Part shown: positions 2 through 15,101 of the stretch, in pieces
How the letters are laid out: every line of letters starts with the position of its first letter
Numbering within the stretch: position 1 is the first letter of the stretch
NCBI GenBank assembly: GCA_021783135.1
Contig: JAJXUE010000003.1
Coordinates: forward strand, 51,085 to 115,084
Direction of reading: 5' to 3'
DNA length: 64,000 nt
Source: Bacillota bacterium
GTDB lineage: Bacteria; Bacillota; Desulfitobacteriia; Desulfitobacteriales; JAJXUE01
Notes under the pieces: generated by a model
Seen by the model: the letters and a program-made list of their open reading frames with translations, nothing else
Databases searched by the model: none
Told to the model about the DNA's origin: nothing
Translations under genes and position numbers: made by a program

Positions 2-541
2 AACTCAGGCGCAGCTGGAACTTCCGCGAATGCAACACCTTCAGCAGCAGCCAGTCAAGTTCCGTCAGTGCCATCCGCCGCAGCCAGTCAAACTCCTGCT
101 AGTGCTGACCCAAATTACGATGTGATTGACTTTAACAAGAATACGCCTACGCCTTTTCCCTGGCTGACTATAATTTTCCTAGTCCTTGATGTTTTGGCAG
201 TCTTGGTCTTGGCAACAATGGTCTGGCGTTGGTTAAAGGGGGTTTGGCCCTGGTCTTATGTGCGACGTCGCCCGGCAAATTTGTTGGACTTGAACCATTT
301 GTCGCCGGAGTTGCAAAACTTGATCAACGATTTTCGGAATGCAGATTCGGAAACTGTTTTAGCGGCTGAAGAATTGCTGCAACGCGGCAAAGGTGGCGAA
401 AAACTATTACAAACAGTGGCCAAGTTGCCGGAAAATCTTGTTACCCGCTTGCAAACCCTGAGCGAAACTGAAACCGAGTTATTGTTCCAGCTTAGCCGCG
501 CTTTGCGCGAGCAGAAAGGCGGTGTCGAGCATGCTAATTAA
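2..541 (+). CDS. 5'-truncated membrane-anchored protein (Ala/Ser/Pro linker, one TM helix, helical tail)
   Basis: Frame open from base 2 (NSGAAGTSANATPSAAASQVPSVPSAAASQ...), TM segment WLTIIFLVLDVLAVLVLATMVW; overlaps start of next gene. Confidence 0.7.
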   Translation, partial: NSGAAGTSANATPSAAASQVPSVPSAAASQTPASADPNYDVIDFNKNTPTPFPWLTIIFLVLDVLAVLVLATMVWRWLKGVWPWSYVRRRPANLLDLNHLSPELQNLINDFRNADSETVLAAEELLQRGKGGEKLLQTVAKLPENLVTRLQTLSETETELLFQLSRALREQKGGVEHAN

Positions 542-1061
542 TGATTGGATGAAAGAGAAAACGTGGTCTCCTTGGGTGGCCGGGGTAGTCCTGGGTATTG
601 CTGGAATAGGTACTTATGTATTGGCGGACAAGACAATTGGTTCTTCCGGCGGACTGGAAAGTATCGATAGCATTTTAGGGCATACCTTTCACCTACCGTG
701 GGCAAACTCGATGTATTTTCGCTTCCAGATGCCGCCGGTCATTTCTTTTCAGATTATGTTGTTTGTCGGGATGTTAATTGGTTCTGCTGTCTCGAGTCTT
801 TGGTCGGGTGATTTCAAGTTTAGAATCATGCCTGACAAGCTTTGGACATCTAATTTTGGGCCAAGCGTCGCTAAACGCTGGATCTTAATCTTTATCGGAG
901 GGGCTATTATTGAGTTTGGGGCCGGTGTGGCCGGCGGGTGTACCAGTGGTTTAGCAATTTCCGGCTCAATGCAACTTTCCCCCGCTGGTTTTATCTTCAT
1001 TGCGGGTTTATTTATTACCGGAATTATCACAACCAAAATTTTGTATGGGAGGAATTACTAG
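531..1061 (+). CDS. YeeE/YedE (TsuA) family sulfur-compound transporter half
   Basis: W-S-P-W..G..LG, IGSSGG, G.LIGS..S...SG, GAGVAGGCTSG motifs. Confidence 0.85.
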   Translation: MLINDWMKEKTWSPWVAGVVLGIAGIGTYVLADKTIGSSGGLESIDSILGHTFHLPWANSMYFRFQMPPVISFQIMLFVGMLIGSAVSSLWSGDFKFRIMPDKLWTSNFGPSVAKRWILIFIGGAIIEFGAGVAGGCTSGLAISGSMQLSPAGFIFIAGLFITGIITTKILYGRNY

Positions 1062-1645
1062 TGGAAACCTACGGAGTTCCCCTCTTAATTGGTTTTTTCT
1101 TCGCCCTTACCCTGCAAAAGGCCGGTTTGGGCCATTACAACAAAATTGTCAATCAATTTAGGTTTAAAGATAACACTGTGATGAAGTTTATGCTGACCGG
1201 AATATCGGTCGGTCTTGTCGGTATCTATCTTCTGCAGGATCTTGGCGCTTTAAAAATTGACCAAGTCAGTTCAACCTACATTTTGGGCAATTTAATCGGA
1301 GGTATGATTTTTGGTGTGGGAATGGCTCTGGCCGGCACCTGACCAGGCACTTTGATCACCGGGTGTGGTCAGGGCAATTTGGATTATTTAATTCCCGGAG
1401 TACTGGGCTTCTTGTTTGGCGGTGTTTTGTTTGGTTACAGTTATCAGGGTTTTTTCTTGAAGATTTCTACTTATGCTTCCTATGGCAACAAAACCTTGGC
1501 CGATTTATGGCATATTAACCACTGGATTTTAATCGCTTTGTTCGTAACCTTTACGTTGATTTTCTATGTCGGCAGCAAGATAACAGAAAGCAAGAGCAAG
1601 CACGAAGACTTGACGCAACAACAACTCCATCAAGTCTCGCAGTGA
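1061..1645 (+). CDS. YeeE/YedE family transporter half, selenoprotein (in-frame UGA 1340-1342)
   Basis: RBS GGGAGG + GTG at 1061; GMALAGT-UGA-PGT where the family has G.CPGT; frame continues to 1645; hairpin after UGA. Confidence 0.85.
1350..1374 (+). promoter_or_regulatory. Bacterial SECIS-like hairpin
   Basis: CUUUGAUCAC-CGGGU-GUGGUCAGGG: 10 bp stem (with G-U pairs), G-rich apical loop, begins 8 nt after UGA. Confidence 0.7.
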
Positions 1646-1660
1646 AAGGAGGCCTAAACG

Positions 1661-3865
1661 GTGTCCAAAATATATACATGGGAAGAATTATTCAGCCGAC
1701 GTCAATTTATTAAAGGCGGCGCCGCCGTGGCCGCCACCGGTGTTGCCGCCTGGAGCGGTTTACTGCAGCCAGCCTTTGGGGCAGGGGAAAATAGCACATT
1801 ACCAACACCGAACAACAGTATAAGGTACGTTAGTACCATCTGTGAACAGTGTGTATGGCGGTGTGGTGTAATTGCCAGGGTCGAGAATGGAGTAGTTAGA
1901 AAGCTCGAGGGTAACCCTGTCCATCCACAAAACAAAGGTAAGTTATGTCCGCGCGGCAATGCCGGCATCGAAACACTATACAGTCCTGACCGGATTAAAT
2001 TTCCTCTGATTCGTGCCGGTGCGCGTGGCAGTGGACTATGGCGGCGGGCATCCTGGGATGAGGCTTTAAGTTACACAGCTGCTCAAATGCAACAGATTAA
2101 AGTTAAATACGGCGCAAAAGCGATGATGTTTAACTCTACCGACAACTTGTCGCAGCCTTTTTTCGAAGTTTTATTTAAGGCGTACGGCTCGCCGAACTAC
2201 GGAACCCAGCGTAGCCTCTGTTTTAATGCTATGACTACAGGCTTTCTATATACTTATGGGGTGGCACAGCCGGGTACAGATTATGCTAACTGCAAATATA
2301 TGATTTTTTCCGGGCGGAACTTGGCCGAAGGAATTGCCAACATTGAAACCCAGGAAATGATCGATATGATGGCTCGAGGCACAAAAGTGGTTGTGTTAGA
2401 TCCGCGATTCACTAAAACGGCCTCTAAAGCCGAATGGCTTCCGATTCGTCCCGGTACGGATTTGGCCTTCTTCTTAGCTATGTTGAATGTGGTAATCACA
2501 GAAAAACTATACGACAAGGCTTTCGTCGCGCAATATACGCAAGGCTTTGCTGATCTGGCCAAAGAAGTAAGCCAGTATACCCCGGAGTGGGCCGAAGTAA
2601 AGACAGATATCCCCGCAGTAACCATTCGCCGCATTGCCCATGAATTTGCCGCGGCAGCGCCGGCTGCCATTGCGCACCCTAACTGGCGCACGTCCAATTT
2701 CATCAATTCATTTCAACATGAACGGGCGGTTGCCGTGTTAAATGCCATTGTCGGCAACTGGGCACAGCCCGGAGGTTTGATCCCAGATCAGAGTATCAAT
2801 ACAGCACAGTTAGGGACAATTCCCCACCCTTCTTTTCCTCCGGCCCAGGGTCTCCGTTTAGATGGAGTACCCTGGCAATACCCGATGGTGCCGTTTGCGT
2901 ATGGAGTGATTCAAACCATGCGGGATAATATTTTAACAGGCAAACCGTATCAAGCCCATGGTTGGTTAATTTCGCGCCAAAACCCTGTGTTGTCGATTCC
3001 GGAACGGCAAAAGACTATTAACGCACTGATGAAGTTAGATTTTGTTGCTGTGGTAGATATTCAGGCTAATGATACTGCGTACTATGCAGACGTGATTTTG
3101 CCAGAGTCGAGCTATTTGGAGCGCTATGATGGCCTGGTGCCGCTTGGCGACCAGATATTCATCCGCCAACCGGTTATTGATCCTCTCTACGACACCAAAA
3201 GCAGCCTTATGATCTATCAGGAACTGGCGCAAAAACTTGGCTTAGGGGATTTCCTGCCGTATCAAAATGAAGAAGACCTGCTAAGCAAGCAGCTTAGTCC
3301 TTTTGCCATTGGTTTAGATGAATTGAAACAACAAGGCTATTACACAGTCCCTAACTTTAAAAAGGATCTCACGCAGGACTTTAAATTCCAAACAACCAGC
3401 GGTAAGATTGAAATTTCCTCAAGCATTATGGCGCAAATGGGTAAGACTGCTGTCCCCACCTGGGATGCGCCGCCGCAACCAGCTTCGAACCAATTTTACC
3501 TGCTCACAGGTAAAACCGCGCAGCACAGCCAAATGTTTACCCAAAATAATCGTTGGCTCTTGGAGCTCTTCCCGGAGAATAAGGCTTGGATTCACACATC
3601 CGTTGCCCAAAATATCGGAGTACAAACCGATGATGAAGTTGTTATTGCGAGCGATGTCGGCAAAGTACGCATCAAAGCATTCGTAACTGAAGGCATTAGA
3701 CCAGACTGCGTATTCATGGTCGGAGGGTTTGGACACGTGAGTAAAGGTCTTAAGAGTGCTTATGGAGTGGGAGCGAGCGACTCGGCCTTACACAAATCTC
3801 TTGCCGACCCAATTTCGGGCAGTTCCGCCCTAAGTCAAACCTTCGTAACAGTTAGTAAAGCGTAG
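1661..3865 (+). CDS. Molybdopterin oxidoreductase catalytic subunit, PsrA/PhsA/SrrA family
   Basis: Tat motif SRRQFIK, CEQCVWRC...C 4Fe-4S motif, SLCFNA Mo-ligand Cys, ADVILPESSYLER. Confidence 0.9.
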   Translation: MSKIYTWEELFSRRQFIKGGAAVAATGVAAWSGLLQPAFGAGENSTLPTPNNSIRYVSTICEQCVWRCGVIARVENGVVRKLEGNPVHPQNKGKLCPRGNAGIETLYSPDRIKFPLIRAGARGSGLWRRASWDEALSYTAAQMQQIKVKYGAKAMMFNSTDNLSQPFFEVLFKAYGSPNYGTQRSLCFNAMTTGFLYTYGVAQPGTDYANCKYMIFSGRNLAEGIANIETQEMIDMMARGTKVVVLDPRFTKTASKAEWLPIRPGTDLAFFLAMLNVVITEKLYDKAFVAQYTQGFADLAKEVSQYTPEWAEVKTDIPAVTIRRIAHEFAAAAPAAIAHPNWRTSNFINSFQHERAVAVLNAIVGNWAQPGGLIPDQSINTAQLGTIPHPSFPPAQGLRLDGVPWQYPMVPFAYGVIQTMRDNILTGKPYQAHGWLISRQNPVLSIPERQKTINALMKLDFVAVVDIQANDTAYYADVILPESSYLERYDGLVPLGDQIFIRQPVIDPLYDTKSSLMIYQELAQKLGLGDFLPYQNEEDLLSKQLSPFAIGLDELKQQGYYTVPNFKKDLTQDFKFQTTSGKIEISSSIMAQMGKTAVPTWDAPPQPASNQFYLLTGKTAQHSQMFTQNNRWLLELFPENKAWIHTSVAQNIGVQTDDEVVIASDVGKVRIKAFVTEGIRPDCVFMVGGFGHVSKGLKSAYGVGASDSALHKSLADPISGSSALSQTFVTVSKA

Positions 3866-3878
3866 GAGGAAAGATAAA

Positions 3879-4454
3879 ATGGCAGTTCGCATGGGCTTTG
3901 TTATCATCACTTCGCGCTGTATCGATTGCGATGCCTGTATGGTGGCGTGTCGGGCGGAAAATGAAGTCCCGCTCGGGTTCACCCGTAACTGGGTTACCAA
4001 CAAGGGAATAGCCGGACTGTTCCCTAATGTTAAGCAAATGTTTGAACCGGGCAATTGTATGCATTGTGACAGTCCGCCTTGTGTAGCAGTTTGTCCCACC
4101 GGAGCGTCGCATAAGCGCGAGGACGGGATTGTTTTGGTGGACGATGTCAAATGTATCGGATGTAAATACTGCATCGAAGCGTGCCCGTATGACGCTCGTT
4201 TTCCCAATCCGGATACAGGTAAGGCCGACAAATGTACTTTTTGCATTCAACGACTGGAGCAAGGCTTGCAGCCTGCTTGCGTGCAGACGTGTATCGGCAA
4301 GGCTCGCCATTCCGGCGACCTGAATAATCCGGCGAGTGTGGTGTCCCAGTTACTCGACATCTATCCGGCCCGTCAGCTTTTGACGCAAGCAGGGACTGGT
4401 CCGAACATTTACTATATTGATGTCCCGGTACCTGAAATTCCGGCGGGCAAATAA
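3879..4454 (+). CDS. 4x[4Fe-4S] electron-transfer subunit (PsrB/NrfC type)
   Basis: CIDCDACMVAC, CMHCDSPPCVAVCP, CIGCKYCIEACP, KCTFC...PACVQTC. Confidence 0.92.
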   Translation: MAVRMGFVIITSRCIDCDACMVACRAENEVPLGFTRNWVTNKGIAGLFPNVKQMFEPGNCMHCDSPPCVAVCPTGASHKREDGIVLVDDVKCIGCKYCIEACPYDARFPNPDTGKADKCTFCIQRLEQGLQPACVQTCIGKARHSGDLNNPASVVSQLLDIYPARQLLTQAGTGPNIYYIDVPVPEIPAGK

Positions 4455-4475
4455 CATAGACTGGGGGAGGATGTA

Positions 4476-5381
4476 ATGCACGGAGAATTTGTCTGGGGTA
4501 TTTTAATTGTCATCTACCTGTTCACTGCAGGGTTAAGCGCCGGGGCTATGGTAACATCGAACGGGGCGTTATTGCTCGGAGGAGAACGGTTTGATCGCAT
4601 AGCACGCTGGGGAGCCTTGATTGCACCATTTCCAATTGCTATTGGAACGGGTATGCTGTTGGTTGATTTGGGCAGCCCGCTCAATTTCTACCGTTTGTTT
4701 ATGATCTTGCAAGTAAAATCACCTATGTCATACGGCAGCTGGGCAATATTGCTGTTTACAGTGTTAAGCTTAGTCTATTTTTACCTGTGGTTGCCCGAAA
4801 AGTTGCAGATCTGGCGGCGACCTGCTCAGTATGTGCAGTGGCAACGGTTTTTGGCCAAAGTAATGCCGGTGCTGGCTGTAATTGTAGCTGCCTATACTGG
4901 AGTTCTATTAAATGCTGCTGGTCGCCCACTGTGGCAGACACCGCTGTTGCCGGAGTTATTCTTGGTTTCGGCCTTTTCAACCGGTGTGGCGTCAGTCATC
5001 TTAGCTGCCAGCCTTAGTCATACTTGGCGCGCCCGGCACCATGAAATACGTGTTCTGACTATTGCGGATGCAGTGTTGGTGATTTTGGAGTTAATACTCT
5101 TTGCCACGATGGCACTTTCCGCTCAACTCGGTACATTAAGTCAACGTTTAGCTTTTGCGCAGTTATTGGATGGTCACTATGCTTGGATGTTTTGGTTTTT
5201 TATAGTAATCTTAGGGTTAGTGGTACCTCTGCTGATGGAGATTAGCGAAATAAGGGGTAAAATTCCTGTCAAATGGGCGGGGTCATTAACTATTGGCAGC
5301 AGTTTTCTTGTTCTATTCGGTGGATTTTTCGTGCGATATGCGATTACTTACGCTGGACAATGGAGCGGTTGGGTGCACTAG
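4476..5381 (+). CDS. NrfD/PsrC membrane anchor subunit
   Basis: WG..I..YLF..GLSAGA, L.VDLG.P, SPMS.GSW, AAYTG.LL motifs; about 8 TM helices. Confidence 0.9.
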   Translation: MHGEFVWGILIVIYLFTAGLSAGAMVTSNGALLLGGERFDRIARWGALIAPFPIAIGTGMLLVDLGSPLNFYRLFMILQVKSPMSYGSWAILLFTVLSLVYFYLWLPEKLQIWRRPAQYVQWQRFLAKVMPVLAVIVAAYTGVLLNAAGRPLWQTPLLPELFLVSAFSTGVASVILAASLSHTWRARHHEIRVLTIADAVLVILELILFATMALSAQLGTLSQRLAFAQLLDGHYAWMFWFFIVILGLVVPLLMEISEIRGKIPVKWAGSLTIGSSFLVLFGGFFVRYAITYAGQWSGWVH

Positions 5382-5411
5382 TGAGAGCATAAGGGGGCAT
5401 TAGAGCAGGCC

Positions 5412-5867
5412 ATGGAAGATGAAAATAGTGTACTAACGCGCCGCAACTTGCTGCGAATTGGTTGGGTGAGTATTATTGCTTCCGGTCTTTTGTCTCTGTG
5501 GCCGCTTAGCCAGTATTTAACCAGCTCAGAGGATAGCTTACAATCAGACATTATAACGCTTAAAATCTCCCCGCTTATTGGCAACCAATGGTATCACATC
5601 GAAAATACCCGGGTGTGGCTAAAACGAGCTGGTCAAGGCTACGCTGCAATTTTAGCAACATGTACCCATCTGGGCTGCGAAGTAGCCTATAATTCCTCCC
5701 AGCAAAAGTGGTTTTGCCCGTGTCATGGCAGTGTCTATAATGCCGAAGGCACACCGATCGCGGGACCGGCACCGCGCGACTTAGCGCGTGTGGCGGTAAA
5801 AGCCGTAAATGATACTTTGATCGTTAATATCGGTAAGGTAGTAGGAATGGATAGGCAAATACTATGA
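5412..5867 (+). CDS. Rieske [2Fe-2S] protein
   Basis: TRRNLL Tat-like motif, CTHLGC and CPCHGS boxes, GPAPRDL. Confidence 0.92.
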   Translation: MEDENSVLTRRNLLRIGWVSIIASGLLSLWPLSQYLTSSEDSLQSDIITLKISPLIGNQWYHIENTRVWLKRAGQGYAAILATCTHLGCEVAYNSSQQKWFCPCHGSVYNAEGTPIAGPAPRDLARVAVKAVNDTLIVNIGKVVGMDRQIL

Positions 5868-6499
5868 CCCAAAAACGAACGCAAGAAAACTTTTTATGGC
5901 ACATTCGAGCGCGCCAGGTTCCAGCCAGAGCATTATCTGTAGTATATACTTTCTGTCTGGGCGGCATATCCTTTCTGGCCTTTGTCGTTTTAGCAGTTAC
6001 AGGCGTACTACTAATGTTTCACTATCAACCGGGCTATTCGGACGGTTACCACAGCGTGCTCAACCTGGCTTCCGTCATTCCGTATGGAGCGGTGTTACGC
6101 AACCTGCATTACTGGGCAGGTCAAATCATGGTTATAACAGTTGCCCTGCATATGGTTCGGGTGGTCTGGACGCAATCCTATCGTCCGCCGCGCGAACTTA
6201 ATTGGGTGGTCGGTGTCAGTTTGTTGGTTATAACTATAATTTTAGATTTTAGCGGTTATTTACTGCGAGGTTCGCAAGAAAGCGGCGCTGCAGCTACGGT
6301 CGCCGTGCATATCTTACAATTGGTGCCTGGGATAGGTGTAGGTTTAGCCGCAGCATTTTTTGGTCATCCAACTGCCTTGAGTGGTAGTACCTTAATGATT
6401 TATGTATGGCACTGCGTGGCCTTGCCTTCAGTCGCCTTTTACCTGCAAGGTTACCATTTTTGGCGCGTGCGAAAAGACGGGGGCATAAAACCTCTTTAG
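5864..6499 (+). CDS. Cytochrome b6-type (split cytochrome b, N-terminal part)
   Basis: FCLGG (heme ci Cys), four His ligands in LHYW..LHM and WHC..YHF, RPPRELNW. Confidence 0.9.
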   Translation: MTQKRTQENFLWHIRARQVPARALSVVYTFCLGGISFLAFVVLAVTGVLLMFHYQPGYSDGYHSVLNLASVIPYGAVLRNLHYWAGQIMVITVALHMVRVVWTQSYRPPRELNWVVGVSLLVITIILDFSGYLLRGSQESGAAATVAVHILQLVPGIGVGLAAAFFGHPTALSGSTLMIYVWHCVALPSVAFYLQGYHFWRVRKDGGIKPL

Positions 6500-6511
6500 G
6501 AGAACCATGAC

Positions 6512-6877
6512 ATGGATAAAGTTCCCGGCAGAAAACTATGGTCAAAAGAAGGTCTTGTAGTCATATTTTCACTTGCGATCGGAATACTTTTGTCCTTGCT
6601 ATTACAAGCACCCGTGGGAACATCTCCCCAGGCGCCTCTGCTTGCCCATGCGGTCGCACCTTGGATTTTTGGACCGGTTCAAATAGCCCTATTATACCTG
6701 CCGCCCTGGTTGGGAGCTGTGCTCTTACCCTTGGCGGCCTTGGCGTGCTTAACTGCTTTACCCTGGTTGGGAAAATTAGGCGGAAGGCGTTTGGCGTTGG
6801 GCTCCTTTGCGGCAGTAGGAATTATCATCGGCGTGTTACTACTCTGGTTTATGGGTAGAGAGTATTGGTGGCATTAA
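6512..6877 (+). CDS. Cytochrome b6 subunit IV-like membrane protein
   Basis: 3 TM helices; APWIF at the PEWY-equivalent position; LPWL; follows cytochrome b. Confidence 0.75.
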   Translation: MDKVPGRKLWSKEGLVVIFSLAIGILLSLLLQAPVGTSPQAPLLAHAVAPWIFGPVQIALLYLPPWLGAVLLPLAALACLTALPWLGKLGGRRLALGSFAAVGIIIGVLLLWFMGREYWWH

Positions 6878-6879
6878 TT

Positions 6880-8343
6880 ATGGACAAAAAAAGTTGGCTG
6901 TTCGCTTTAGGCGGGCTGTTGTTATTGACTACTGTCGGTTTAAGTATATTGGGCAATTACACTTCGAATTGGGCCATGTACCAGCAAAAGTATTTCCAGG
7001 CGCAGATCAATACCCTGCAAGCCCAACTAAAGACAACTTCCCACGGGCAAGCAAGAGCAAAACTCGAACAGCAAATTACTCAATGGCAAAACCGTAAACC
7101 GCAAATAGTTAACTTGGTTTTGCCGAATGGTCAAGTAGAGCGGTGCCAAACATGTCATATGGGTCTGGAGGAAATTTCAACTTCTCATCCGCCGGACACC
7201 TTCGGCTGTACAGTTTGCCATGGGGGCAACGGCCTCTCGCTTGACTTGAAGACAGCCCATGCCGACTGGTACGGACAAGGTCACCCAGGTAGGTTGAGTG
7301 TTGCTGGTTTGACGTGCGGTGGTACAGGTCCTAATGGGCAAACCTGCCACAGCGGCAATAAAGTACAGGCCCAAAATGAAGTGGATTTAGTCAAAACATC
7401 ATTAATGAGTACAAAGGCAGGAGAACTTAGCTTCGTGCGACGCATGCTAGGGCTAGATCCAGGCACAAAGGTGCCCAATTTAGCATTAGGCGAACCTGCT
7501 TCCCAATACCCCAATCCCTTAAACGGCGGGCCGCGCCAAGCTGCCTTGCAAACCAATTGTCTGAGCCAATGCCATCAAGCCGGTGGACTATTGCCATTGC
7601 TGCAAAAAGGCAAGACTGAGATTCCCAGTAACGGGTGTGAAAACTGCCATGTATTATCAAATCCCGATCACACCTATGTGGGGCAAGACGTAACAATTTC
7701 CCGTACTGAAGCTGGTTTAGGCATGGTGCACCAGCTAACTACCCAGATACCTTATACCCAGTGCAATCAGTGTCATAACCAAGGCTTGCACGACCCAATT
7801 AAGATGAAATTCACCCCTCGTGTCGATCTGCAGCAAGTAGTTAAAGACCGGCAGACCGGGAATAAAACCTGGTCAGCACGAGTCAAGGATTATTATCTGC
7901 CGGGCGAGCTTTTTGCCAAGTGCGAGGTTAGTCTGGATTGTATCGATTGCCATACCCGCGAGGATGTAATGGGAGACGGTCACATGTATACCTCAGAATA
8001 TGCGGCAGTACATATCCAGTGTCAAGATTGCCATGGAACCATCAACAGTTTACCGCTAAGTAAGAAGGTACGGAGCACGAGCGACTTAGCTTTTGAAGAA
8101 GGCATTGCCAACCCTAACTTTCCGGCGTTGGTAGTGGGTGACACTATCGGCTTAACACATCAAGGGGAGGAGTTGCCTTATGTACGGCAAAAAGGGCAAA
8201 CCAGGTATATCGTGAGTAGAATAACTGGTACTAAATATACAATTCCCATGGTCAAAGGCAGTGCTTGCCGACAAAAATTGACTGAGCAAGGTGCGGATGC
8301 TTGTCATGCTTGTCATCAAGCTGTTTCAGAACAAGCTCATTAA
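6880..8343 (+). CDS. Membrane-anchored multiheme cytochrome c
   Basis: 7 CXXCH motifs plus CLSQCH and CX9CH; N-terminal TM helix. Confidence 0.9.
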   Translation: MDKKSWLFALGGLLLLTTVGLSILGNYTSNWAMYQQKYFQAQINTLQAQLKTTSHGQARAKLEQQITQWQNRKPQIVNLVLPNGQVERCQTCHMGLEEISTSHPPDTFGCTVCHGGNGLSLDLKTAHADWYGQGHPGRLSVAGLTCGGTGPNGQTCHSGNKVQAQNEVDLVKTSLMSTKAGELSFVRRMLGLDPGTKVPNLALGEPASQYPNPLNGGPRQAALQTNCLSQCHQAGGLLPLLQKGKTEIPSNGCENCHVLSNPDHTYVGQDVTISRTEAGLGMVHQLTTQIPYTQCNQCHNQGLHDPIKMKFTPRVDLQQVVKDRQTGNKTWSARVKDYYLPGELFAKCEVSLDCIDCHTREDVMGDGHMYTSEYAAVHIQCQDCHGTINSLPLSKKVRSTSDLAFEEGIANPNFPALVVGDTIGLTHQGEELPYVRQKGQTRYIVSRITGTKYTIPMVKGSACRQKLTEQGADACHACHQAVSEQAH

Positions 8344-8378
8344 GCACCTTACTGCAATAAATATTTTGGGCAAAAGTG

Positions 8379-8407
8379 TTGACAATATAAGATAAATTGC
8401 ATATATT
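8379..8407 (+). promoter_or_regulatory. SigA promoter
   Basis: TTGACA (8379-8384), 17 nt spacer, TATATT (8402-8407). Confidence 0.75.
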
Positions 8408-8417
8408 TTAAATATGT

Positions 8418-8437
8418 GATACCCCCCCTAGGGTATC
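8418..8437. promoter_or_regulatory. CsoR/CstR-family operator
   Basis: GATACCC-CCCCTA-GGGTATC: inverted repeat with C/G tract, just downstream of the -10 box. Confidence 0.7.
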
Positions 8438-8471
8438 CGGTTAAAATCAATTGAATTGGAGTGAATTGAAT

Positions 8472-9755
8472 ATGAGCTCAAATATTGTTTACACAAATGC
8501 GCAAGATTGGCAAAGTGAGGTGCTGGGGTCGCACCTGCCGGTGATCGTCGACTTTTATTCTGAAGAGTGTTCACCGTGCGCAGCTTTGGCTCCTATTTTT
8601 GAGAAGCTTGCGGAAAAATACAGTAATCAAATGAAATTCGTCAAGATCCTGCGCCAACAAAACCGCGAACTAGCGCTAAGCCTGAATGTAAAAAGCAGCC
8701 CGACTGTTTTGTTCTTTAATCAAGGACAGGAGGTGGGTGATCGGTTTAACGGGTATATCAGAAAGCCAGATTTGCGGCAAGCGCTAGAGAACGTTTTGAA
8801 CATCACACCGGATGATGTCACCCTGGAGAAGGTCAAAGCTGATGTGCTGATTTTAGGTGGCGGTCCTGCCGGTCTGTCGGCTGCTATTTATGCGGCTAGG
8901 GCTAGACTAAAGACAATTATTGTTGACGAAGGGGTTCCGGGTGGTCAGGCAGCAACCACCTGGGAAATTGCTAACTATCCAGGCACAGCCGGCACCATCA
9001 GCGGTAAGGAACTTATGGATAATATGCTGACCCAAGCCAAGTCTTTCGGCACCCAAGTTGATGATTTAAAAGAAGTAAGCAGGGTTGAGCTAAAGGGCGA
9101 CCTTAAAGTAATCACCACTGAAGATACAGAATATGCCGCTCCGGTATTGATTATAGCCACGGGTTCCGAGTCGCGGCGCTTACCGGTTGATGGTGAAGCA
9201 GATTTTAGAGGAATGGGCATTCACTACTGTGCCACATGTGACGGAGCTAATTATCAAGATGCCAAAGTAATTGTCGTGGGTGGGGGCAATTCGGCAGTAG
9301 AAGAGGCTGTTTTTCTCACTAAATTTGCGTCACATGTTACCATCGTGCATCAGTTTGATAATTTCCAGGCCTCCAAGACAGCACAAGAGCAGGCCTTGCA
9401 TAATCCAAAAATTGATGTGGTCTGGGACAGTGAGCCGCGTGCAATTTTAGGCGATAAGGAATTGACCGGTATTCGCGTGGAGAATATCAAGACGGGCGAA
9501 TTTAAAGATATAGCAGCAAACGGTGTTTTTGTGTACATCGGGATGCAGACGCGTACGAATTTGTTTGAAGGTCAGATAAAAACCAACCAATGGGGCTATG
9601 TAGAAGTGGATGAAGAGCTTAAAACAAATATCCCCGGGGTGTATGCGGCAGGAGATATTCGTTCCAAACAGATTCGCCAAGTTGTTACCGCCGCCAGCGA
9701 TGGCGCCATTGCAGGTATTAACGCCGAAAGATATTTTATGTTGCAGGAGAATTGA
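8472..9755 (+). CDS. Thioredoxin-thioredoxin reductase fusion protein
   Basis: N-terminal Trx domain (VDFYSEECSPC) joined to TrxB domain (GGGPAGLSAA, YCATCDG, GGGNSA, AAGD). Confidence 0.88.
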   Translation: MSSNIVYTNAQDWQSEVLGSHLPVIVDFYSEECSPCAALAPIFEKLAEKYSNQMKFVKILRQQNRELALSLNVKSSPTVLFFNQGQEVGDRFNGYIRKPDLRQALENVLNITPDDVTLEKVKADVLILGGGPAGLSAAIYAARARLKTIIVDEGVPGGQAATTWEIANYPGTAGTISGKELMDNMLTQAKSFGTQVDDLKEVSRVELKGDLKVITTEDTEYAAPVLIIATGSESRRLPVDGEADFRGMGIHYCATCDGANYQDAKVIVVGGGNSAVEEAVFLTKFASHVTIVHQFDNFQASKTAQEQALHNPKIDVVWDSEPRAILGDKELTGIRVENIKTGEFKDIAANGVFVYIGMQTRTNLFEGQIKTNQWGYVEVDEELKTNIPGVYAAGDIRSKQIRQVVTAASDGAIAGINAERYFMLQEN

Positions 9756-9766
9756 GGAGTATTAGC

Positions 9767-10387
9767 ATGTCTGTGTTGAAGATTGTGCAGCGCTACAGCG
9801 CAGAAACAGAAACTGACAATCTAAGCTGCGGTAATAATTTGGCCTTTGCCACCCTGGCAGCGGGCGATATTGTTATCGATTTAGGCTGTGGACGTGGTCG
9901 CGAGACAATCGCGGCGGCGCTGGCTGTTAACGCCGGGTATGCTTATGGTCTGGATATTACGCCACAGATGATCGAGGCTGCCGAAGCAGCCGCAGTTGAG
10001 CAAGGAATTGCAAATGTTAAGTTTAGTGTAGGATCGTTCGAACTTTTGCCTTATCCAGCCGACTTTGCCACGGTAATTATGAGTAATTGCGCAATTAACC
10101 ATGTGCAAGACAAACAGAAGGTTTATAGCGAAATCTATCGTGTTTTACAAAATGGCGGCTACTTTATAGTATCCGATATCATGGCGCAACAAGCTCTGCC
10201 GCCCGAGATCACGTCCGACCCTGAGGCAGTAGCAGCGTGCTTTGGTGGCGCAATTCCAAGCGATATGTATTTTGCCGCAATCAGCAAAGCTGGGTTTGAC
10301 GAAGTTGAGGTGCTGAAAGAGCGTCACTACGTCAAAAATGGCTACGGTCTGATAAGCCGTACTTTACGCGCCTATAAACAAGCATAG
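9767..10387 (+). CDS. ArsM-like SAM-dependent methyltransferase
   Basis: LSCGN, DLGCGRG, SNCAIN and ACFGGA: the three Cys positions typical of arsenite methyltransferases. Confidence 0.75.
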   Translation: MSVLKIVQRYSAETETDNLSCGNNLAFATLAAGDIVIDLGCGRGRETIAAALAVNAGYAYGLDITPQMIEAAEAAAVEQGIANVKFSVGSFELLPYPADFATVIMSNCAINHVQDKQKVYSEIYRVLQNGGYFIVSDIMAQQALPPEITSDPEAVAACFGGAIPSDMYFAAISKAGFDEVEVLKERHYVKNGYGLISRTLRAYKQA

Positions 10388-10402
10388 AGAGGAGGTGAGT
10401 CC

Positions 10403-10522
10403 ATGCGTCCTGTCACAAAAGCTAACTTAGGTCAAACTAAAATATGCTGCACGAGTGTTGCTTTAAAAGTAGCCCAGTGCTGCTCTAAATCGTCCAAAGT
10501 TGTTTCCGGCTGTCACGATTAA
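10403..10522 (+). CDS. Cys-rich RiPP precursor peptide candidate, 39 aa (MRPVTKANLGQTKICCTSVALKVAQCCSKSSKVVSGCHD)
   Basis: Strong RBS GAGGAGGTGA, ATG 10403, TAA 10520-10522; directly upstream of radical SAM/SPASM gene; absent from ORF track. Confidence 0.8.
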   Translation: MRPVTKANLGQTKICCTSVALKVAQCCSKSSKVVSGCHD

Positions 10523-10529
10523 TGGCTTT

Positions 10530-10556
10530 AAAGCGGCGGCCAATGGCTGCCGCTTT
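10530..10556 (+). terminator. GC-rich stem-loop between precursor and maturase
   Basis: AAAGCGGCGGCC-AAT-GGCTGCCGCTTT. Confidence 0.6.
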
Positions 10557-10580
10557 CCGGCAAAATATGGGGTGAGATGG

Positions 10581-11948
10581 TTGTATTACAGTAAATATAA
10601 TTTAGTTCTACCATTACAGGATTCTGTCTATAAGTATGCTGTGCTTAACTCCTTGAGTGGCGCCTTTGATCTAGCAACGGAAAAGGAGGGCGAGCTACTT
10701 TCGGCATATTCCCAGACGCAAGAGGACACAAGTTCTGGGCTAAGCGCTTACCTTAAGGCTCGAGGCTATCTCTTCGAGTCTCAAGCGGAGGAAGATGCTT
10801 TGGTGGAGCGCAAATTTGCGGAGTTTCAGGATGTATTGCAAGAAAGTGCTCCGCAGGTTCTCTTAATTCCGACTTATAATTGTAATCTTGCTTGCGTCTA
10901 TTGCTTCCAAAATGGTATTAAGGATAAAACAGCTTTAATCACGCCGGATGTGGTGGATGCATTTTTTGCGATATTACCTGAAATTTATCCATTCCAAAAG
11001 CCTTTTATCACCCTTTTTGGTGGTGAACCATTGGTCTATTCGCCCAAACAAAGTGAGATAATTGCCTATATAGTGGACAAAGCAGCCGAACTTGATTATG
11101 AAATTGCCGCTGTAACCAACGGCTACGACTTAGTGCAATACTTAGATGTATTAACTAAAGCCAAAGTCAGGGAAATTCAGGTCACAATTGACGGTCCGCA
11201 AAATCTACATGATGCCAGGCGTCACACCAAAAATGGTAAAGGAACCTTTGACCAGATCATGCAAGGCTTGACCGAGGCCATTAGCTTGGGTATCCCCATA
11301 AACTTACGCGCCGTTGTCGATAAAACCAATTTTGCAGGGCTGGTCGACCTGGCAAATGAATTAGAGCAACGCGGGTGGTTGGATTTACCGCCGGAAAAAT
11401 TCAAGACCCAAATTGGTCGTAATTACGAGCTTTTTGAATGCTACGCTACACCAAAGCACCTGCTCGACCAAGTGGAACACTGGGCCAAGGTGGTTGAACT
11501 TAGCGAGCAGTATCCAGTACTGAAGAAGTTTCATCAACCGGAATTTAAAGGTATTAAGCATCTGGTACAAACAGGGGAGCTTTATCTGCCAACGTTTGAC
11601 ACCTGTCCGGCGTGCAAAACAGAGTGGGTTTTTGACCTTTATGGCCAAATTTATGGTTGTACAGCAAATACAGGCCGAGAAGAGTATAGCCTTGGCACTT
11701 TTTATCCGCAACTCCAGTTAAACAGCTCGGAAATAGGGGAATGGCAGAAACGCAACGTCCTAAATATTCCTGAATGCCGCGACTGTGACGTTAGTCTAAT
11801 TTGCGGTGGAGGCTGTGGTGTTGTCGCTAAGGAGAAAAATGGCAGTGTATTATCACCTGATTGCCGCCCCATTAAAGGAATTCTGGAGCAGGGCTTAAAA
11901 TATTTCCAATCCGATATCTTGGCCATGCAGGAAACATCATCGTCATAG
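10581..11948 (+). CDS. Radical SAM/SPASM peptide maturase with N-terminal RRE-like domain
   Basis: TTG start after GGGGTGA; CNLACVYC, FGGEP, SPASM CPAC...YGC...CRDC.....CGGGC...C; N-terminal YSKYN..LNSLSGA..LKARGYL. Confidence 0.9.
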   Translation: MYYSKYNLVLPLQDSVYKYAVLNSLSGAFDLATEKEGELLSAYSQTQEDTSSGLSAYLKARGYLFESQAEEDALVERKFAEFQDVLQESAPQVLLIPTYNCNLACVYCFQNGIKDKTALITPDVVDAFFAILPEIYPFQKPFITLFGGEPLVYSPKQSEIIAYIVDKAAELDYEIAAVTNGYDLVQYLDVLTKAKVREIQVTIDGPQNLHDARRHTKNGKGTFDQIMQGLTEAISLGIPINLRAVVDKTNFAGLVDLANELEQRGWLDLPPEKFKTQIGRNYELFECYATPKHLLDQVEHWAKVVELSEQYPVLKKFHQPEFKGIKHLVQTGELYLPTFDTCPACKTEWVFDLYGQIYGCTANTGREEYSLGTFYPQLQLNSSEIGEWQKRNVLNIPECRDCDVSLICGGGCGVVAKEKNGSVLSPDCRPIKGILEQGLKYFQSDILAMQETSSS

Positions 11949-11961
11949 GGGAGGGAGCAAC

Positions 11962-12171
11962 ATGTCGGCATTCGTTCTCGACAAATTGTGTAAAGGTTGT
12001 CAAAGATGTGTTCGAGCCTGCCCTGAGGGTGCTATCAGCATGGCCTTAAGTTTGGCGGTGGTCGAGGCAAGCAAGTGTACGGAGTGTGAAACCTGTATGG
12101 AAGCCTGTATGCATGGGGCGATAACTCTGGTGCAAGATGTCAAGGAAGACCTTAAGGCAATCCAAGGATAA
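11962..12171 (+). CDS. 2x[4Fe-4S] ferredoxin
   Basis: CKGCQRCVRACP and CTECETCMEAC; RBS GGGAGGGAG. Confidence 0.9.
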   Translation: MSAFVLDKLCKGCQRCVRACPEGAISMALSLAVVEASKCTECETCMEACMHGAITLVQDVKEDLKAIQG

Positions 12172-12198
12172 ACTGTTAATTATAAGGAGGTAGTTAAA

Positions 12199-12393
12199 TT
12201 GAGTGCACAAGCTAGTGAAGAACTCCATAGTCTACAAGAAGAGTTGGAAGACCTAATTGCGGAGCGCCAGTTTCAATTGGGACAGACAGGGGTGCATATT
12301 TCTGCGAAAAAAGTAATTGCCTTACGTGAATATTATGACAAGGAAATCGGCGCTCTGGAACAGAAAATTAAAGCTCTGGAAGGAAACGCTTAG
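12199..12393 (+). CDS. Small coiled-coil hypothetical protein
   Basis: RBS AAGGAGG + TTG; two helices around LGQTGVHI. Confidence 0.7.
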   Translation: MSAQASEELHSLQEELEDLIAERQFQLGQTGVHISAKKVIALREYYDKEIGALEQKIKALEGNA

Positions 12394-12437
12394 CTCTTGG
12401 TCTTATAAGGCGCGCTACGGGTCAAGGCCCATAATAT

Positions 12438-12474
12438 AAGCCGGCATGGATTTATCATCCTGTCGGCCTTTTTT
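12438..12474 (+). terminator. Rho-independent terminator
   Basis: GCCGGCATGGAT...ATCCTGTCGGC followed by T-tract. Confidence 0.7.
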
Positions 12475-12589
12475 ATACTTTCTAATAGTACGTGGAAATG
12501 CGCGAGCAGAGGAAACCGATTCGCGCTTTTCTTGTAGCCTGAGCGTAGAATTTACTCCAAATGGGTAAGACTATACGCGAAGGAGGGTT

Positions 12590-14023
12590 ATGCCATTGAA
12601 GCAACGATTAAGAGTTGAGAAAAGTTTTACAGAAAAAGAGGTTGGACAGGTTATTACCCAACGTAAGCAAGCAGTTAAGTCTGAAATGTCCGCCGGAAGT
12701 TTGATCTGGGTAGGTTTAGGGGGCATCATCGGGGCAGGGTTTTTTCTGGCATCGGGATTGGCAATTAAGCAAGCAGGACCCGGCGTAATCTTTGCCTATC
12801 TATTAGGCGGACTCTTGCTAGCCCAAGTTGCGGGTGCGCTGACAACGCTATCCGTGGATCACCCGGTGCGTGGCTCATTCCGGGTCTATGCTGAAGAGTT
12901 TATTGGGCCATACATGGGATTTGTCGTTGGTTGGGCCTTTTGGATATCTTCTATTCTTGGGATTGGCTCCGAAACTGTAGCTATGGCAATTTTCACGGAA
13001 TTTTGGTTTCCCGGCTTACCGCTTTGGTTGATTTCACTTATTTACTTGGCATTAGTAATTGGTCTCAATGCCTTTGGTGTTAAAAATTTTGGCCGTATTG
13101 AATCCCTCATGTCAATGGTCAAGGTAGGAGCGTTATTTGCCTTTATCTGCATTAGCGTATTAGCTGTTTTTCACTTACTACCCTCCACTGGCAACGTTGG
13201 CTTTAAAACGTTGCTGGGGAATGGCGGGCTGCTGCCTATGGGTATTAGCGGCATGCTGCGATCCATGTTAATCGTAATTTTTGCTTATGCCGGTATTTCT
13301 ATTGTGGCTATGGCTGCTTCAGAAGTTACCCAGCCCCGCATAACGATTCCAGGCGTCACTTTGAAGGTAGTGATTATTCTGCTTGTTATATATACACTTT
13401 CTATGTTCCTAATCACCTCACTCACCCCTTGGCAAGGTATTTCCGCCAAAGAGTCTCCCTTTGTTGCAGCACTGGCGGTTGTAGGGGTTCCCTGGGCCTC
13501 AAGCTTAATGAATGCGATTATTTTAGTGGCCGCCTTTTCTGTAATGACCGGCGCCTTTTTTGCTGCTATGACCATGCTCATTTCTATGGGAGATGACGGC
13601 CAAGCACCACGTATTTTGGGTAAGCCAAGCAAAAACGGGGTATTTTATCCCAGCCTCATAGCCAGTGCACTAGGAGTGCTGTTGACTGTAGTTGTTGCCT
13701 ATTTGTTGCCGTCTAAAGTCTATAACTATTTAACCTCGGCCTCTGCCTATTTTTCGTTTCTTAACTGGCTTGTCATTCTTACCTGTTACCTATTACTGCG
13801 TAAGGCCAAACGCGGACACGAATTTACTTCTCCTTTGAGCTTTGGCAGACCCTGGACAACCTGGCTAACTTTAGCTGTGATATTGGTACTGTTTGATTTT
13901 TCCCTAACTGTTTTGGATCAACGGATGGGCTTTTACTCCTTTGTAGGGTTCGTACTCTTGATCAATCTAGGCTATGCTTACTATCGCACCAAAAACAAAG
14001 GCAGGTCGGGCGACACCAATTAA
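12590..14023 (+). CDS. APC-family amino acid permease
   Basis: GLGGIIGAGFF, AGP, 12 TM pattern, SPFV. Confidence 0.88.
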   Translation: MPLKQRLRVEKSFTEKEVGQVITQRKQAVKSEMSAGSLIWVGLGGIIGAGFFLASGLAIKQAGPGVIFAYLLGGLLLAQVAGALTTLSVDHPVRGSFRVYAEEFIGPYMGFVVGWAFWISSILGIGSETVAMAIFTEFWFPGLPLWLISLIYLALVIGLNAFGVKNFGRIESLMSMVKVGALFAFICISVLAVFHLLPSTGNVGFKTLLGNGGLLPMGISGMLRSMLIVIFAYAGISIVAMAASEVTQPRITIPGVTLKVVIILLVIYTLSMFLITSLTPWQGISAKESPFVAALAVVGVPWASSLMNAIILVAAFSVMTGAFFAAMTMLISMGDDGQAPRILGKPSKNGVFYPSLIASALGVLLTVVVAYLLPSKVYNYLTSASAYFSFLNWLVILTCYLLLRKAKRGHEFTSPLSFGRPWTTWLTLAVILVLFDFSLTVLDQRMGFYSFVGFVLLINLGYAYYRTKNKGRSGDTN

Positions 14024-14129
14024 GTCGGCAAAATGAGGTCGCACGTGGCCGGTTAAGTCTGCTCTTTTTTTAGCACTTTTCGCAAGCTGCTGCGTATAAT
14101 TACTATATAGCTTGGGGGGAGGTGCTAGA

Positions 14130-15101
14130 TTGGAAATAAAAGTCCGCTTTAATCGCCCCAAGACAACAGACCCAGCGCCTGCCTTTAACATGGTCGCAGA
14201 CAGCAAAAATCCGCCCCACAGGGGTTTTTCTGTGTTTAAAGCAACCGAAAATAATTTACAGCTGGCCACCTTGGATCAGACAGATAAAGTTAGGGAAGTA
14301 CTGCTGGAACTTGATGCTTTGATTGGGTTACGCATGGTAAAAAAACTAATCAAGGAAATCCAGGCCTATGTGGAAATCCAAAAACGGCGTTGTAAGGAAA
14401 AATTAGTGGCAGAGCCACTCGTGTTACACATGGTATTCCGGGGGAATCCCGGTACCGGCAAGACTACGGTCGCTAGAATAGTGGGTAAATTATTAAAGGA
14501 GATGGGTTTCTTACAGAAGGGCCACATAACTGAAGTGGAGAGAGCCGATTTGGTGGGAGAATATATAGGACATACTGCACAAAAAACGCGCGAGCAAGCC
14601 AAGCGTGCTTTAGGTGGCGTACTGTTTATAGATGAAGCCTACTCACTGGCCAGGGGTGGTGAAAAGGATTTTGGCAAAGAGGCTATCGATGTCCTGGTCA
14701 AGTGTATGGAGGATCATAAGGATAATCTGATTTTAGTATTGGCCGGTTACAAAGACGAAATGGATTGGTTTTTACAGACTAACCCCGGTCTAAGGTCACG
14801 TTTTCCAATCCATATTGACTTTCCCGATTACTCAATTGAAGAGTTAATGCAAATAGCAGATTTGATGCTGACAAAACGTCAGTATAAGTTAACATTGGAT
14901 GCAAGACTGGAACTTAGAAGACTGCTGACAGATCAAATTATGCACGGTCACCAACATAGCGGCAATGCTAGGTTAGTGCGTAACATGATTGAACGTGCCA
15001 TTCGGCGACAGGCTGTTCGTTTATTTAGGCAAGTCGAATTTTCTCGGGAAGAGCTGCTGACCATTTTGCCAATTGATTTCATCGATTCAGACAACGTATA
15101 A
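14130..15101 (+). CDS. spoVK: Stage V sporulation protein K (CbxX/CfxQ-type AAA ATPase)
   Basis: HMVFRGNPGTGKTT, GGVLFIDEAYSL, NPGLRSRF; upstream of hflX. Confidence 0.85.
   Translation: MEIKVRFNRPKTTDPAPAFNMVADSKNPPHRGFSVFKATENNLQLATLDQTDKVREVLLELDALIGLRMVKKLIKEIQAYVEIQKRRCKEKLVAEPLVLHMVFRGNPGTGKTTVARIVGKLLKEMGFLQKGHITEVERADLVGEYIGHTAQKTREQAKRALGGVLFIDEAYSLARGGEKDFGKEAIDVLVKCMEDHKDNLILVLAGYKDEMDWFLQTNPGLRSRFPIHIDFPDYSIEELMQIADLMLTKRQYKLTLDARLELRRLLTDQIMHGHQHSGNARLVRNMIERAIRRQAVRLFRQVEFSREELLTILPIDFIDSDNV

Follow-up and report, generated by a model that had tools for sequence, protein, structure and literature searches.

The thioether-forming maturases CteB (thermocellin) and PapB (freyrasin), which belong to the sactipeptide and ranthipeptide pathways among those for ribosomally synthesized and post-translationally modified peptides (RiPPs), combine an N-terminal RiPP recognition element (RRE)-like domain, a CxxxCxxC motif and a seven-Cys SPASM region with a Cys-rich peptide encoded immediately upstream. 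The mycofactocin (MftA/MftB/MftC) and pyrroloquinoline quinone (PQQ; PqqA/D/E) systems pair a short peptide carrying a conserved C-terminal core with an RRE-dependent radical S-adenosylmethionine (SAM)/SPASM enzyme, and their logic is that of a function inside the cell, with neither immunity nor export genes. In arsenic methylation by ArsM, thioredoxin is the reductant of the catalytic cycle. Features of these systems meet in the locus described here, which lies at positions 8379-12475 on the + strand of a 64,000-nucleotide stretch of a Bacillota bacterium genome (assembly GCA_021783135.1, contig JAJXUE010000003.1, positions 51,085 to 115,084; hereafter the window) and forms a single compact transcription unit of six open reading frames (ORFs). 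Four of them encode a thioredoxin-thioredoxin reductase (Trx-TrxR) fusion, a short ArsM-core methyltransferase, a 39-aa peptide and an RRE-radical SAM-SPASM enzyme. An earlier reading of the DNA letters (the original prediction) had proposed an undescribed RiPP system at this place. Our analysis leads us to regard the locus, with evenly balanced confidence, as a conserved peptide-maturation and thiol-redox module and no bacteriocin cluster. It would be a radical SAM system of the RiPP type whose fixed partners have no precedent and whose role is probably intracellular.

The genes proved to be linked well beyond the window. Relatives of the locus were taken from a scan of 185,579 species genomes as the best 80 of 503 stretches; their hosts belong to Bacillota, Bacteroidota, Acidobacteriota and Anaeromyxobacter, with enzyme identities of 40-76%, and are mutually related, and the counts that follow describe a family and are no independent trials. 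The methyltransferase was present in 73/80 loci, the peptide in 73/80, the Trx-TrxR fusion in 67/80 and all four together in 62/80, which bears out the original claim that the genes form one conserved module. Two gene orders predominated, methyltransferase-peptide-enzyme-Trx-TrxR in 49 loci and Trx-TrxR-methyltransferase-peptide-enzyme, as in the window, in 13. Among a set of 41 related genomes, an enzyme ortholog was detected at E<=1e-170 in 10; the ten loci fetched from this set (nine of those genomes, the window's own excluded, plus a degraded remnant in G015) held the four genes together in 8 cases. At least 503 species-level genomes of anaerobes, spread over four phyla, carry the module, and its cultured carriers include Carboxydothermus, Thermoanaerobacterium, Desulfitobacterium, Desulfosporosinus and Anaeromyxobacter species. 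The original prediction had named maturase homologs lacking a conserved upstream peptide as the finding that would speak against it; a check of the maturase neighbourhoods showed that the homologs do carry such a peptide upstream, and the objection thus falls away.

The peptide gene (10403..10522, +, 39 aa), a putative precursor or carrier, starts with the leader MRPVTK..., continues through a variable part with a CC pair and ends in the invariant core AQCCSKSSKVVSGCHD. Across the 73 peptides recovered (63 distinct; 32-40 aa, median 35), the ORF kept both its C-terminal motif and its stop position (73/80 loci), the leader was basic and began M-[KR]-x-[VIL]-T, and the middle was variable and often contained a CC pair, which was absent from Bacteroidales and from two Carboxydocellales sequences. 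The last 16 residues, AQCC[SA]KxSxx[VI]xGCH[DN], are followed directly by the stop codon, and nine of them (A, Q, C, C, K, S, G, C and H) were identical in 73/73 peptides. Mean identity to the window's sequence was 84.6% (69-94) for the core and 52.9% (40-76) for the enzyme. A core that evolves more slowly than its enzyme is unexpected for a bacteriocin and is seen in peptide-derived cofactors, so that this pattern points to a cofactor-like or carrier-like role. Seven loci lacked the peptide: five have the enzyme gene at the end of a contig, in G009 the peptide is encoded elsewhere in the genome, that is, in trans (E = 4e-14), and in L093 neither peptide nor methyltransferase was found locally. 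No NCBIfam or Pfam family matched the peptide, and the protein atlas gave no usable match.

Individual loci depart from the common pattern. The Bacteroidales metagenome-assembled genome of L092 carries peptide, enzyme, Trx and Trx-TrxR in a tandem duplicate (positions 3-6778), with no methyltransferase within the available stretch. The peptide gene of Anaeromyxobacter terrae (L098, 9688-9789) lies 3' of the enzyme gene, and the Trx-TrxR match of the same locus is broken into two parts with two bases between them, pointing to a frameshift or an error in sequencing. Decay was seen in L039 (3574-4935), where an in-frame TAA interrupts the enzyme gene at codon 89, and in G015 (L022, 5496-6381), which retains only methyltransferase and enzyme fragments and in whose genome the peptide was not found.

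The enzyme encoded after the peptide (10581..11948, +, 455 aa), the predicted maturase, contains the motif CNLACVYC and matches the radical SAM family PF04055 (E = 2e-20). In an alignment of 33 sequences C101, C105 and C108 were invariant, as were the SPASM motif residues C342, G355, C360, C399, C402, C408, C412 and C428. Pfam returned no SPASM model at E<=0.01, and the SPASM assignment therefore rests on the motif, the alignment to CteB and the fold match. An AlphaFold2 model with a mean predicted local distance difference test score (pLDDT) of 91.5 shows an N-terminal domain, a radical SAM barrel and a Cys-rich C-terminal part; the N-terminal domain is modelled as beta-beta-beta-alpha-alpha-alpha (strands 7-11, 19-23 and 28-32, helices 34-46, 54-61 and 68-88) and is RRE-like. 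The best sequence match in the PDB was CteB (E = 5e-10, through the Cys-rich C-terminus), which was also the best fold match (E = 7e-18, 464-476 columns), followed by AnSME, SuiB and ChlB; PqqE matched weakly in sequence. The architecture originally proposed, an RRE with a radical SAM core and a seven-Cys SPASM region, is thus upheld, with CteB as the nearest solved relative. Scores against curated families stayed far under their cut-offs, in bits 154.6 against 600 for CefB, 141 against 525 for TIGR04463, 118 against 600 for Clo7bot, 115 against 340 for PapB (E = 4e-33), 75 against 425 for SCIFF and 49.8 against 265 for MftC, in keeping with the original prediction, which had not recognised the combination as SCIFF, freyrasin or mycofactocin.

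How the two products might meet was modelled by predicting the complex of enzyme and peptide with three [4Fe-4S] clusters and SAM in one job. The runs scored 0.63, 0.71 and 0.71, while the best of three controls reached 0.02; the mark of 0.71 is attained by 58/80 solved complexes and by 2/110 mismatched pairs. The runs shared at least 36% of their contacts, with a partner pLDDT of at least 41, and residues 1-6 of the peptide made confident contacts with the enzyme segments 27-33 (strand three of the RRE-like domain), 328-334 and 446-450. Leader binding on an RRE is a mode familiar from solved complexes.

The short methyltransferase (9767..10387, +, 206 aa) found its best model in NF008823, an ArsM subfamily, with 180 bits against a cut-off of 263 over profile positions 54-236 of 272. 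Its cysteines C21, C108 and C158 align to C72, C174 and C224 of CmArsM, the solved enzyme of Cyanidioschyzon, where they are the As(III) ligands, and the three were kept in 73/74, 74/74 and 74/74 rows, respectively. The N-terminal Cys-rich segment of ArsM (the region of C44 in CmArsM) and its C-terminal domain are both missing. Related genomes also hold a canonical ArsM, whose N-terminal segment contains two CC pairs, and the short methyltransferase is therefore a distinct paralog. The idea that the peptide is the detached N-terminal Cys arm of ArsM was rejected: when 44 peptides were aligned with 9 canonical ArsM N-termini in hhalign, the probability was 7%, so that the likeness of arm and peptide, both with CC pairs, is an analogy only. 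Among proteins of 362-2000 aa no methyltransferase fusion was seen at E<=1e-30, which is weak evidence. The canonical ArsM matches in L110, L115, L116, L117 and L118 are each interrupted by a single in-frame stop codon, which is TGA in two of them, TAA in two and TAG in the remaining one; those with TGA may be selenoprotein forms like those listed in PMC13188914, and the others may be breaks or read-through.

The Trx-TrxR fusion (8472..9755, +, 427 aa) has a CSPC site in its thioredoxin part and a CATC site in its reductase part. It scored 353 bits against TIGR01292 (cut-off 343.45) and also matched PF00085 and PF07992, and the CxPC and CAxC motifs were each kept in 68/68 rows; the searches used 8484-9752 as the query, four residues short of the full gene.

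Upstream of this gene lies the palindrome ATACCCCCCCTAGGGTAT (8419..8436), 11 nt past the -10 box and with an N6 spacer, which the original prediction had taken for a CsoR/CstR-type operator. The pattern ATACCC-N5/6-GGGTAT matches both the streptomycete CsoR type-2 consensus ATATACCCCTNAGGGGTATAT and the cst operator of Streptococcus mitis CstR. Searching the 2.71-Mb genome for ATACCC-N2-8-GGGTAT found 7 sites, where 20 Markov-1 simulations of this genome averaged 0.7 and never exceeded 3, and 5 of the 7 sites had the N5 spacing (simulation mean 0.1). Further operator copies lie at C14:23922, C15:27081, C3:6976, C42:50631 and C59:4782, those at C14:23922 and C59:4782 being looser matches to TACCC...GGGTA. 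Of the relatives, 65 had enough upstream sequence to be searched for ATACC-N4-10-GGTAT in the 220 nt next to the first cluster gene, irrespective of its identity. A site was present in 21 of them, which strengthens the operator assignment; the 80 loci hold only 45 such sites in 1.11 Mb. Within the genome the sites precede this operon, trxA on contig C42 with the CsoR paralog next to it, a thioredoxin reductase gene, a DUF1638 gene and the CsoR paralog on contig C59, and others stand beside two Thioredoxin_3 genes and near a group of methyltransferase, DsbD_TM and redoxin genes. Together they look like a thiol-redox regulon, and the module appears, from its DNA, to be co-regulated with the thioredoxin system.

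The CsoR-family genes themselves indicate what kind of signal may be sensed. Our genome has two PF02583 genes, the paralogs on C42 and C59; genes of this family adjoin the cluster in 4 loci, and a distant CsoR-like gene (E = 2e-6) ends the operon in 4 more. Where copper sensors have the ligand His, 6/7 CsoR-family proteins linked to the module have Tyr, giving Cys-Tyr-Cys (our own C42 paralog, L131, L132, L025, L047 and L051, compared against our own C59 paralog and L100), and our C59 paralog keeps the ligand set C-H-C. Because Tyr replaces the ligand His in these six, a copper signal, which the original prediction had considered, is unlikely, and a thiol-reactive, non-copper signal is likelier. 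The recurrent redox neighbours of the cluster, which comprise glutaredoxin, redoxin/DsbD, desulfoferrodoxin, Hdr-like proteins, DUF302, a YgaP-like transmembrane protein, ArsP_1 and ArsR, also point that way. A second CsoR-like group, encoded 3' of ferredoxin in L027, L028, L030 and L035, lacks the first Cys.

These data can be weighed against a secreted product. Here the enzyme would make a ranthipeptide-type signal or antimicrobial, the methyltransferase would tailor it, Trx-TrxR would keep its Cys residues reduced, and the protease and exporter would be encoded elsewhere. The nearest curated families, CefB, TIGR04463, Clo7bot and PapB, are all maturases of Cys-rich RiPPs, the nearest solved structure is CteB, and the peptide has a leader-plus-core layout. 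What makes this explanation unlikely, in our judgement, is first that the core is near-invariant over four phyla and changes more slowly than its enzyme, unlike what is usual for secreted RiPPs. Moreover, neither a peptidase nor an exporter is present in the operon or conserved across the 80 loci, an ABC-ATPase-like cluster being found in just 8/80, which confirms the absence already pointed out in the original prediction. The apparent co-regulation with the thioredoxin system and the retention of the ArsM thiolate triad in 73-74/74 rows argue in the same direction.

A frequent fifth part is absent from the original prediction. Many enzyme homologs are 690-790 aa long and end in a C-terminal DUF5714 domain; this fusion was found in 35 of the 71 full-length enzymes of the 80 loci, and several other loci encode DUF5714 as a separate downstream gene. 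The clade of the window is without the fusion, and its own genome has a stand-alone DUF5714 gene on contig C42, where DUF5714, a CsoR-family gene, the operator copy ATACCCCCTAGGGGTAT and trxA stand in a row (G000:C42:21709-23280; L104, 638-2206). Two genomes from the same family, L131 and L132, share this trio of DUF5714, CsoR and trxA, and in the Desulfitobacteriaceae loci L134, L135 and L137 the operator precedes a stand-alone DUF5714 gene. The domain has about 17 invariant Cys/His residues, an RCCK pair included, and 14 of the 35 fusions have CC-rich linkers (CC or CCC runs). Our own DUF5714 protein matched MbdU (NF045648) with E = 1e-48 and 166 bits against a cut-off of 600, and C_GCAxxG_C_C proteins were weakly similar; an AlphaFold2 model of DUF5714 (pLDDT 81) had no PDB match at E<=0.001 among the 144 listed. 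True MbdU selenoproteins with two TGA codons were seen in L152 (8652-10025; G005) and L153 (G400), with a 'CU' pair just before the DUF5714-like domain, at the site of the CC/CCC runs in the fusions. The MbdU neighbourhood as an instance of this module was rejected, none of the other module genes lying within about 8 kb in 2/2 genomes.

A further explanation is a dedicated machine for a metalloid (As(III), Sb(III), Se or Te), which we consider quite improbable. The CC...C cysteines of the peptide would carry the metalloid, the ArsM-core enzyme would methylate it, Trx-TrxR would recycle the disulfides, and the radical SAM enzyme would either pre-organise the peptide or form a carbon-metalloid bond on it. 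The conserved As(III)-binding triad speaks for such a machine, as do the lack of the canonical Cys-rich N-terminal arm in a methyltransferase whose partner peptide has CC pairs instead, the CC-rich linkers in 14/35 fusions together with the 'CU' before the DUF5714 domain of MbdU, and the use of thioredoxin as reductant in the ArsM cycle; an ArsR-type regulator with a CVC motif adjoins in 5/80 loci and an ArsP_1 permease in 8/80. Set against these points are the undemonstrated homology of the peptide to the ArsM N-terminus (the hhalign result above), the lack of any arsenic-resistance genes conserved nearby in the 80 loci, and the absence of the upstream CC pair from the Bacteroidales and two Carboxydocellales peptides. 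To our knowledge, no RRE-SPASM enzyme forms carbon-metalloid bonds.

The module could also supply the precursor of a small diffusible redox cofactor of the mycofactocin or PQQ kind, whose C-terminus would be crosslinked and excised by an unlinked peptidase, with Trx-TrxR as the reductase. The invariant C-terminal core, the RRE-SPASM enzyme, the lack of an exporter and a genetic logic like that of MftA/MftC all fit, but no peptidase is conserved in the 80 loci, the MftC model is far from its cut-off (49.8 bits against 265) and no dependent dehydrogenases are linked, so we give this origin little credence. An accidental arrangement of unrelated genes around a non-coding 39-aa ORF can practically be dismissed, the ORF being kept in 73/80 loci and the linkage in 62/80, across phyla and in two gene orders.

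For the peptide-maturation and thiol-redox module, the following course of events would fit the observations. The leader M-[KR]-x-[VIL]-T would dock as an added beta-strand on the RRE-like domain of the enzyme, as the complex model predicts, and the enzyme would then modify the core AQCC[SA]KxSxx[VI]xGCH[DN]; by analogy with CteB and PapB, the likeliest modification would be one or more Cys-to-carbon thioether crosslinks, an outcome that we hold about as probable as its opposite. The product, a thiol peptide acting like a cofactor or a carrier, would rather probably remain cytoplasmic. Its partner with the ArsM triad would methylate a Cys-held thiophilic species, not an ordinary carbon or oxygen, and candidates are metalloid, sulfur or selenium species, which the peptide may present to the enzyme; the dedicated Trx-TrxR would re-reduce the disulfides formed, and in most lineages the Cys-rich DUF5714 domain would be a further partner. 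Expression would be held off by a non-copper, Cys-Tyr-Cys CsoR-family repressor at the palindrome past the -10 box until a thiol-reactive signal released the operon along with the trxA, trxB and redoxin genes, as the positions of the sites and the gene linkage suggest.

Several points weigh against this account. Thioether formation, methylation, metalloid loading, disulfide recycling and thiol-stress derepression, that is, the chemistry and the role, are predictions drawn from sequence. The complex prediction may have passed because of its likeness to solved RRE-leader complexes (CteB, SuiB-SuiA and ChlB-leader), since leader complexes have been solved for relatives of the enzyme; the run used custom alignments and riding ligands, a departure from the calibration of the tool, and the model gives a position to the leader but not to the core in the active site. 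An ordinary tailoring function is conceivable for the methyltransferase. DUF5714 also turns up outside the carriers of the module, with 12/31 related non-carrier genomes having it compared with 8/10 carriers, and the missing conservation of arsenic-resistance genes counts here as well. Either of the two CsoR paralogs may bind the operon site. Finally, the counts overstate independence, because the loci are the best 80 of 503 and interrelated.

Going further, the matured peptide may be a new thiol cofactor or carrier of strict anaerobes, whose crosslinked CC...CH core presents metalloid, selenium or reactive-sulfur species to the ArsM-core methyltransferase, with the private Trx-TrxR and DUF5714 closing the cycle. 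This is a speculative proposal that we think unlikely as it stands; if true, it would be the first RiPP-type pathway for handling metalloids or reactive sulfur intracellularly, and part of the ArsM family would act on carrier-bound substrates. We know of no cofactor-like or carrier-like role for a Cys-rich, radical-SAM-modified peptide.

The six + strand genes of the window are framed as the original prediction had described, with coordinates slightly corrected. A sigma-70-type promoter, TTGACA-17-TATATT (8379..8407, +), matches the consensus in 11/12 positions and is the top-scoring site in 7500-13500, and an intrinsic-terminator-like hairpin with a U-run, CUUUUUUAU (12440..12475, +; hairpin 12440-12467), closes the unit. 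Its 92-nt fold has -25.9 kcal/mol (z = -1.99), 6/200 shuffles folding equally well, and the hairpin was not among the hits of a simple terminator scan. A Shine-Dalgarno-like purine-rich stretch precedes every one of the six starts, and the intergenic gaps are, in gene order, 11, 15, 58, 13 and 27 nt. The Trx-TrxR gene most likely starts at ATG 8472, replacing 8451. The longest ORF for the radical SAM gene begins at 10500, inside the peptide gene; all homologs, however, begin at TTG 10581, most likely the start here too, so that the two genes do not overlap. An Rfam scan of 8000-12700 gave no match at E<=1.

The last two genes of the operon are not part of the core and are limited to close relatives. 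They encode a 2x[4Fe-4S] ferredoxin with Fer4 family matches (11962..12171, +, 69 aa), a clade-specific accessory, and a helical accessory orphan without a family match above threshold (12199..12393, +, 64 aa). A ferredoxin 3' of the maturase was found in 13/80 loci at E<=1e-3 and in 10/80 at E<=1e-20, and homologs of the orphan in 2/80 only (L023 and L024), which removes both from the module as originally drawn. The further suggestion that the module carries its own electron supply holds for the Trx-TrxR fusion (67/80 loci) and not for the ferredoxin. A relationship of the orphan to the CsoR-like gene found at the same position in other loci was considered and is undemonstrated (E = 0.19).

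Beyond the operon, the 492-aa ORF upstream (6865-8343, +) contains many CxxCH-like motifs and weak Pfam matches to cytochrome c7 and MtrC/MtrF domains, and is probably a multihaem cytochrome without a close family. Past the terminator follow an amino-acid permease (PF00324; 12590-14023, +) and an AAA+ protein with AAA_lid_6 (14112-15101, +), neither of which is conserved with the module.

The comparison with curated radical SAM-RiPP models and the literature that the original prediction had called for supports the novelty of the system. No NCBIfam equivalog or specific Pfam family covers the enzyme, the peptide or the methyltransferase, and public protein names are generic ('radical SAM/SPASM domain-containing protein', 'hypothetical protein'). 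Among the papers that it covered, a literature search returned no description of the module, of DUF5714, of the peptide motif or of a combination of radical SAM, arsenite methyltransferase and SPASM. Haft & Tolstoy 2025 (mSystems) reportedly named MbdU, MduS and TrsS, work that may bear on DUF5714 and the methyltransferase. Radical SAM chemistry of RiPPs, methylation of the ArsM type and the thioredoxin system, three subjects usually treated apart, come together in the module; its elucidation could clarify what short ArsM-like proteins do in anaerobes, assign a function to DUF5714 and identify the signal sensed by the uncharacterised Cys-Tyr-Cys branch of CsoR.

Compared with known systems, the module thus shares parts with several. 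From CteB and PapB, whose domain layout and upstream Cys-rich peptide it has, it differs in an enzyme only 17-19% identical to CteB and below the family cut-offs, in a peptide core invariant across phyla, in its fixed ArsM-core methyltransferase, Trx-TrxR and DUF5714, and in having no linked protease or exporter. Unlike mycofactocin and PQQ, it has no linked peptidase and no Val-Tyr or Glu-Tyr core, and its partners are thiol-redox enzymes, not dehydrogenases. With ArsM/AS3MT it has in common the fold, the three As(III)-binding Cys and, presumably, a thioredoxin-system reductant, whereas its own enzyme of 206 aa misses two segments and always has a peptide and a radical SAM enzyme as linked partners. 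It resembles the regulons of CsoR/CstR, sensors of Cu(I) and persulfide, in operator type and in adjacent or co-located PF02583 genes, but the targets are trxA, trxB, redoxins and the module, not copA/copZ or cst genes. MbdU, DUF5714 and C_GCAxxG_C_C proteins share a CC or CU dithiol arm before the domain, and the DUF5714 protein of our genome is set apart from MbdU by its score (166 against 600). Finally, AhpF/NTRC-type fusions also join a Trx-fold domain to TrxR in one polypeptide, whereas the fusion described here has a single N-terminal Trx domain with CxPC, scores 245 against 503 and 327 against 688 with the AhpF models, and stands in an operon without a peroxiredoxin partner.

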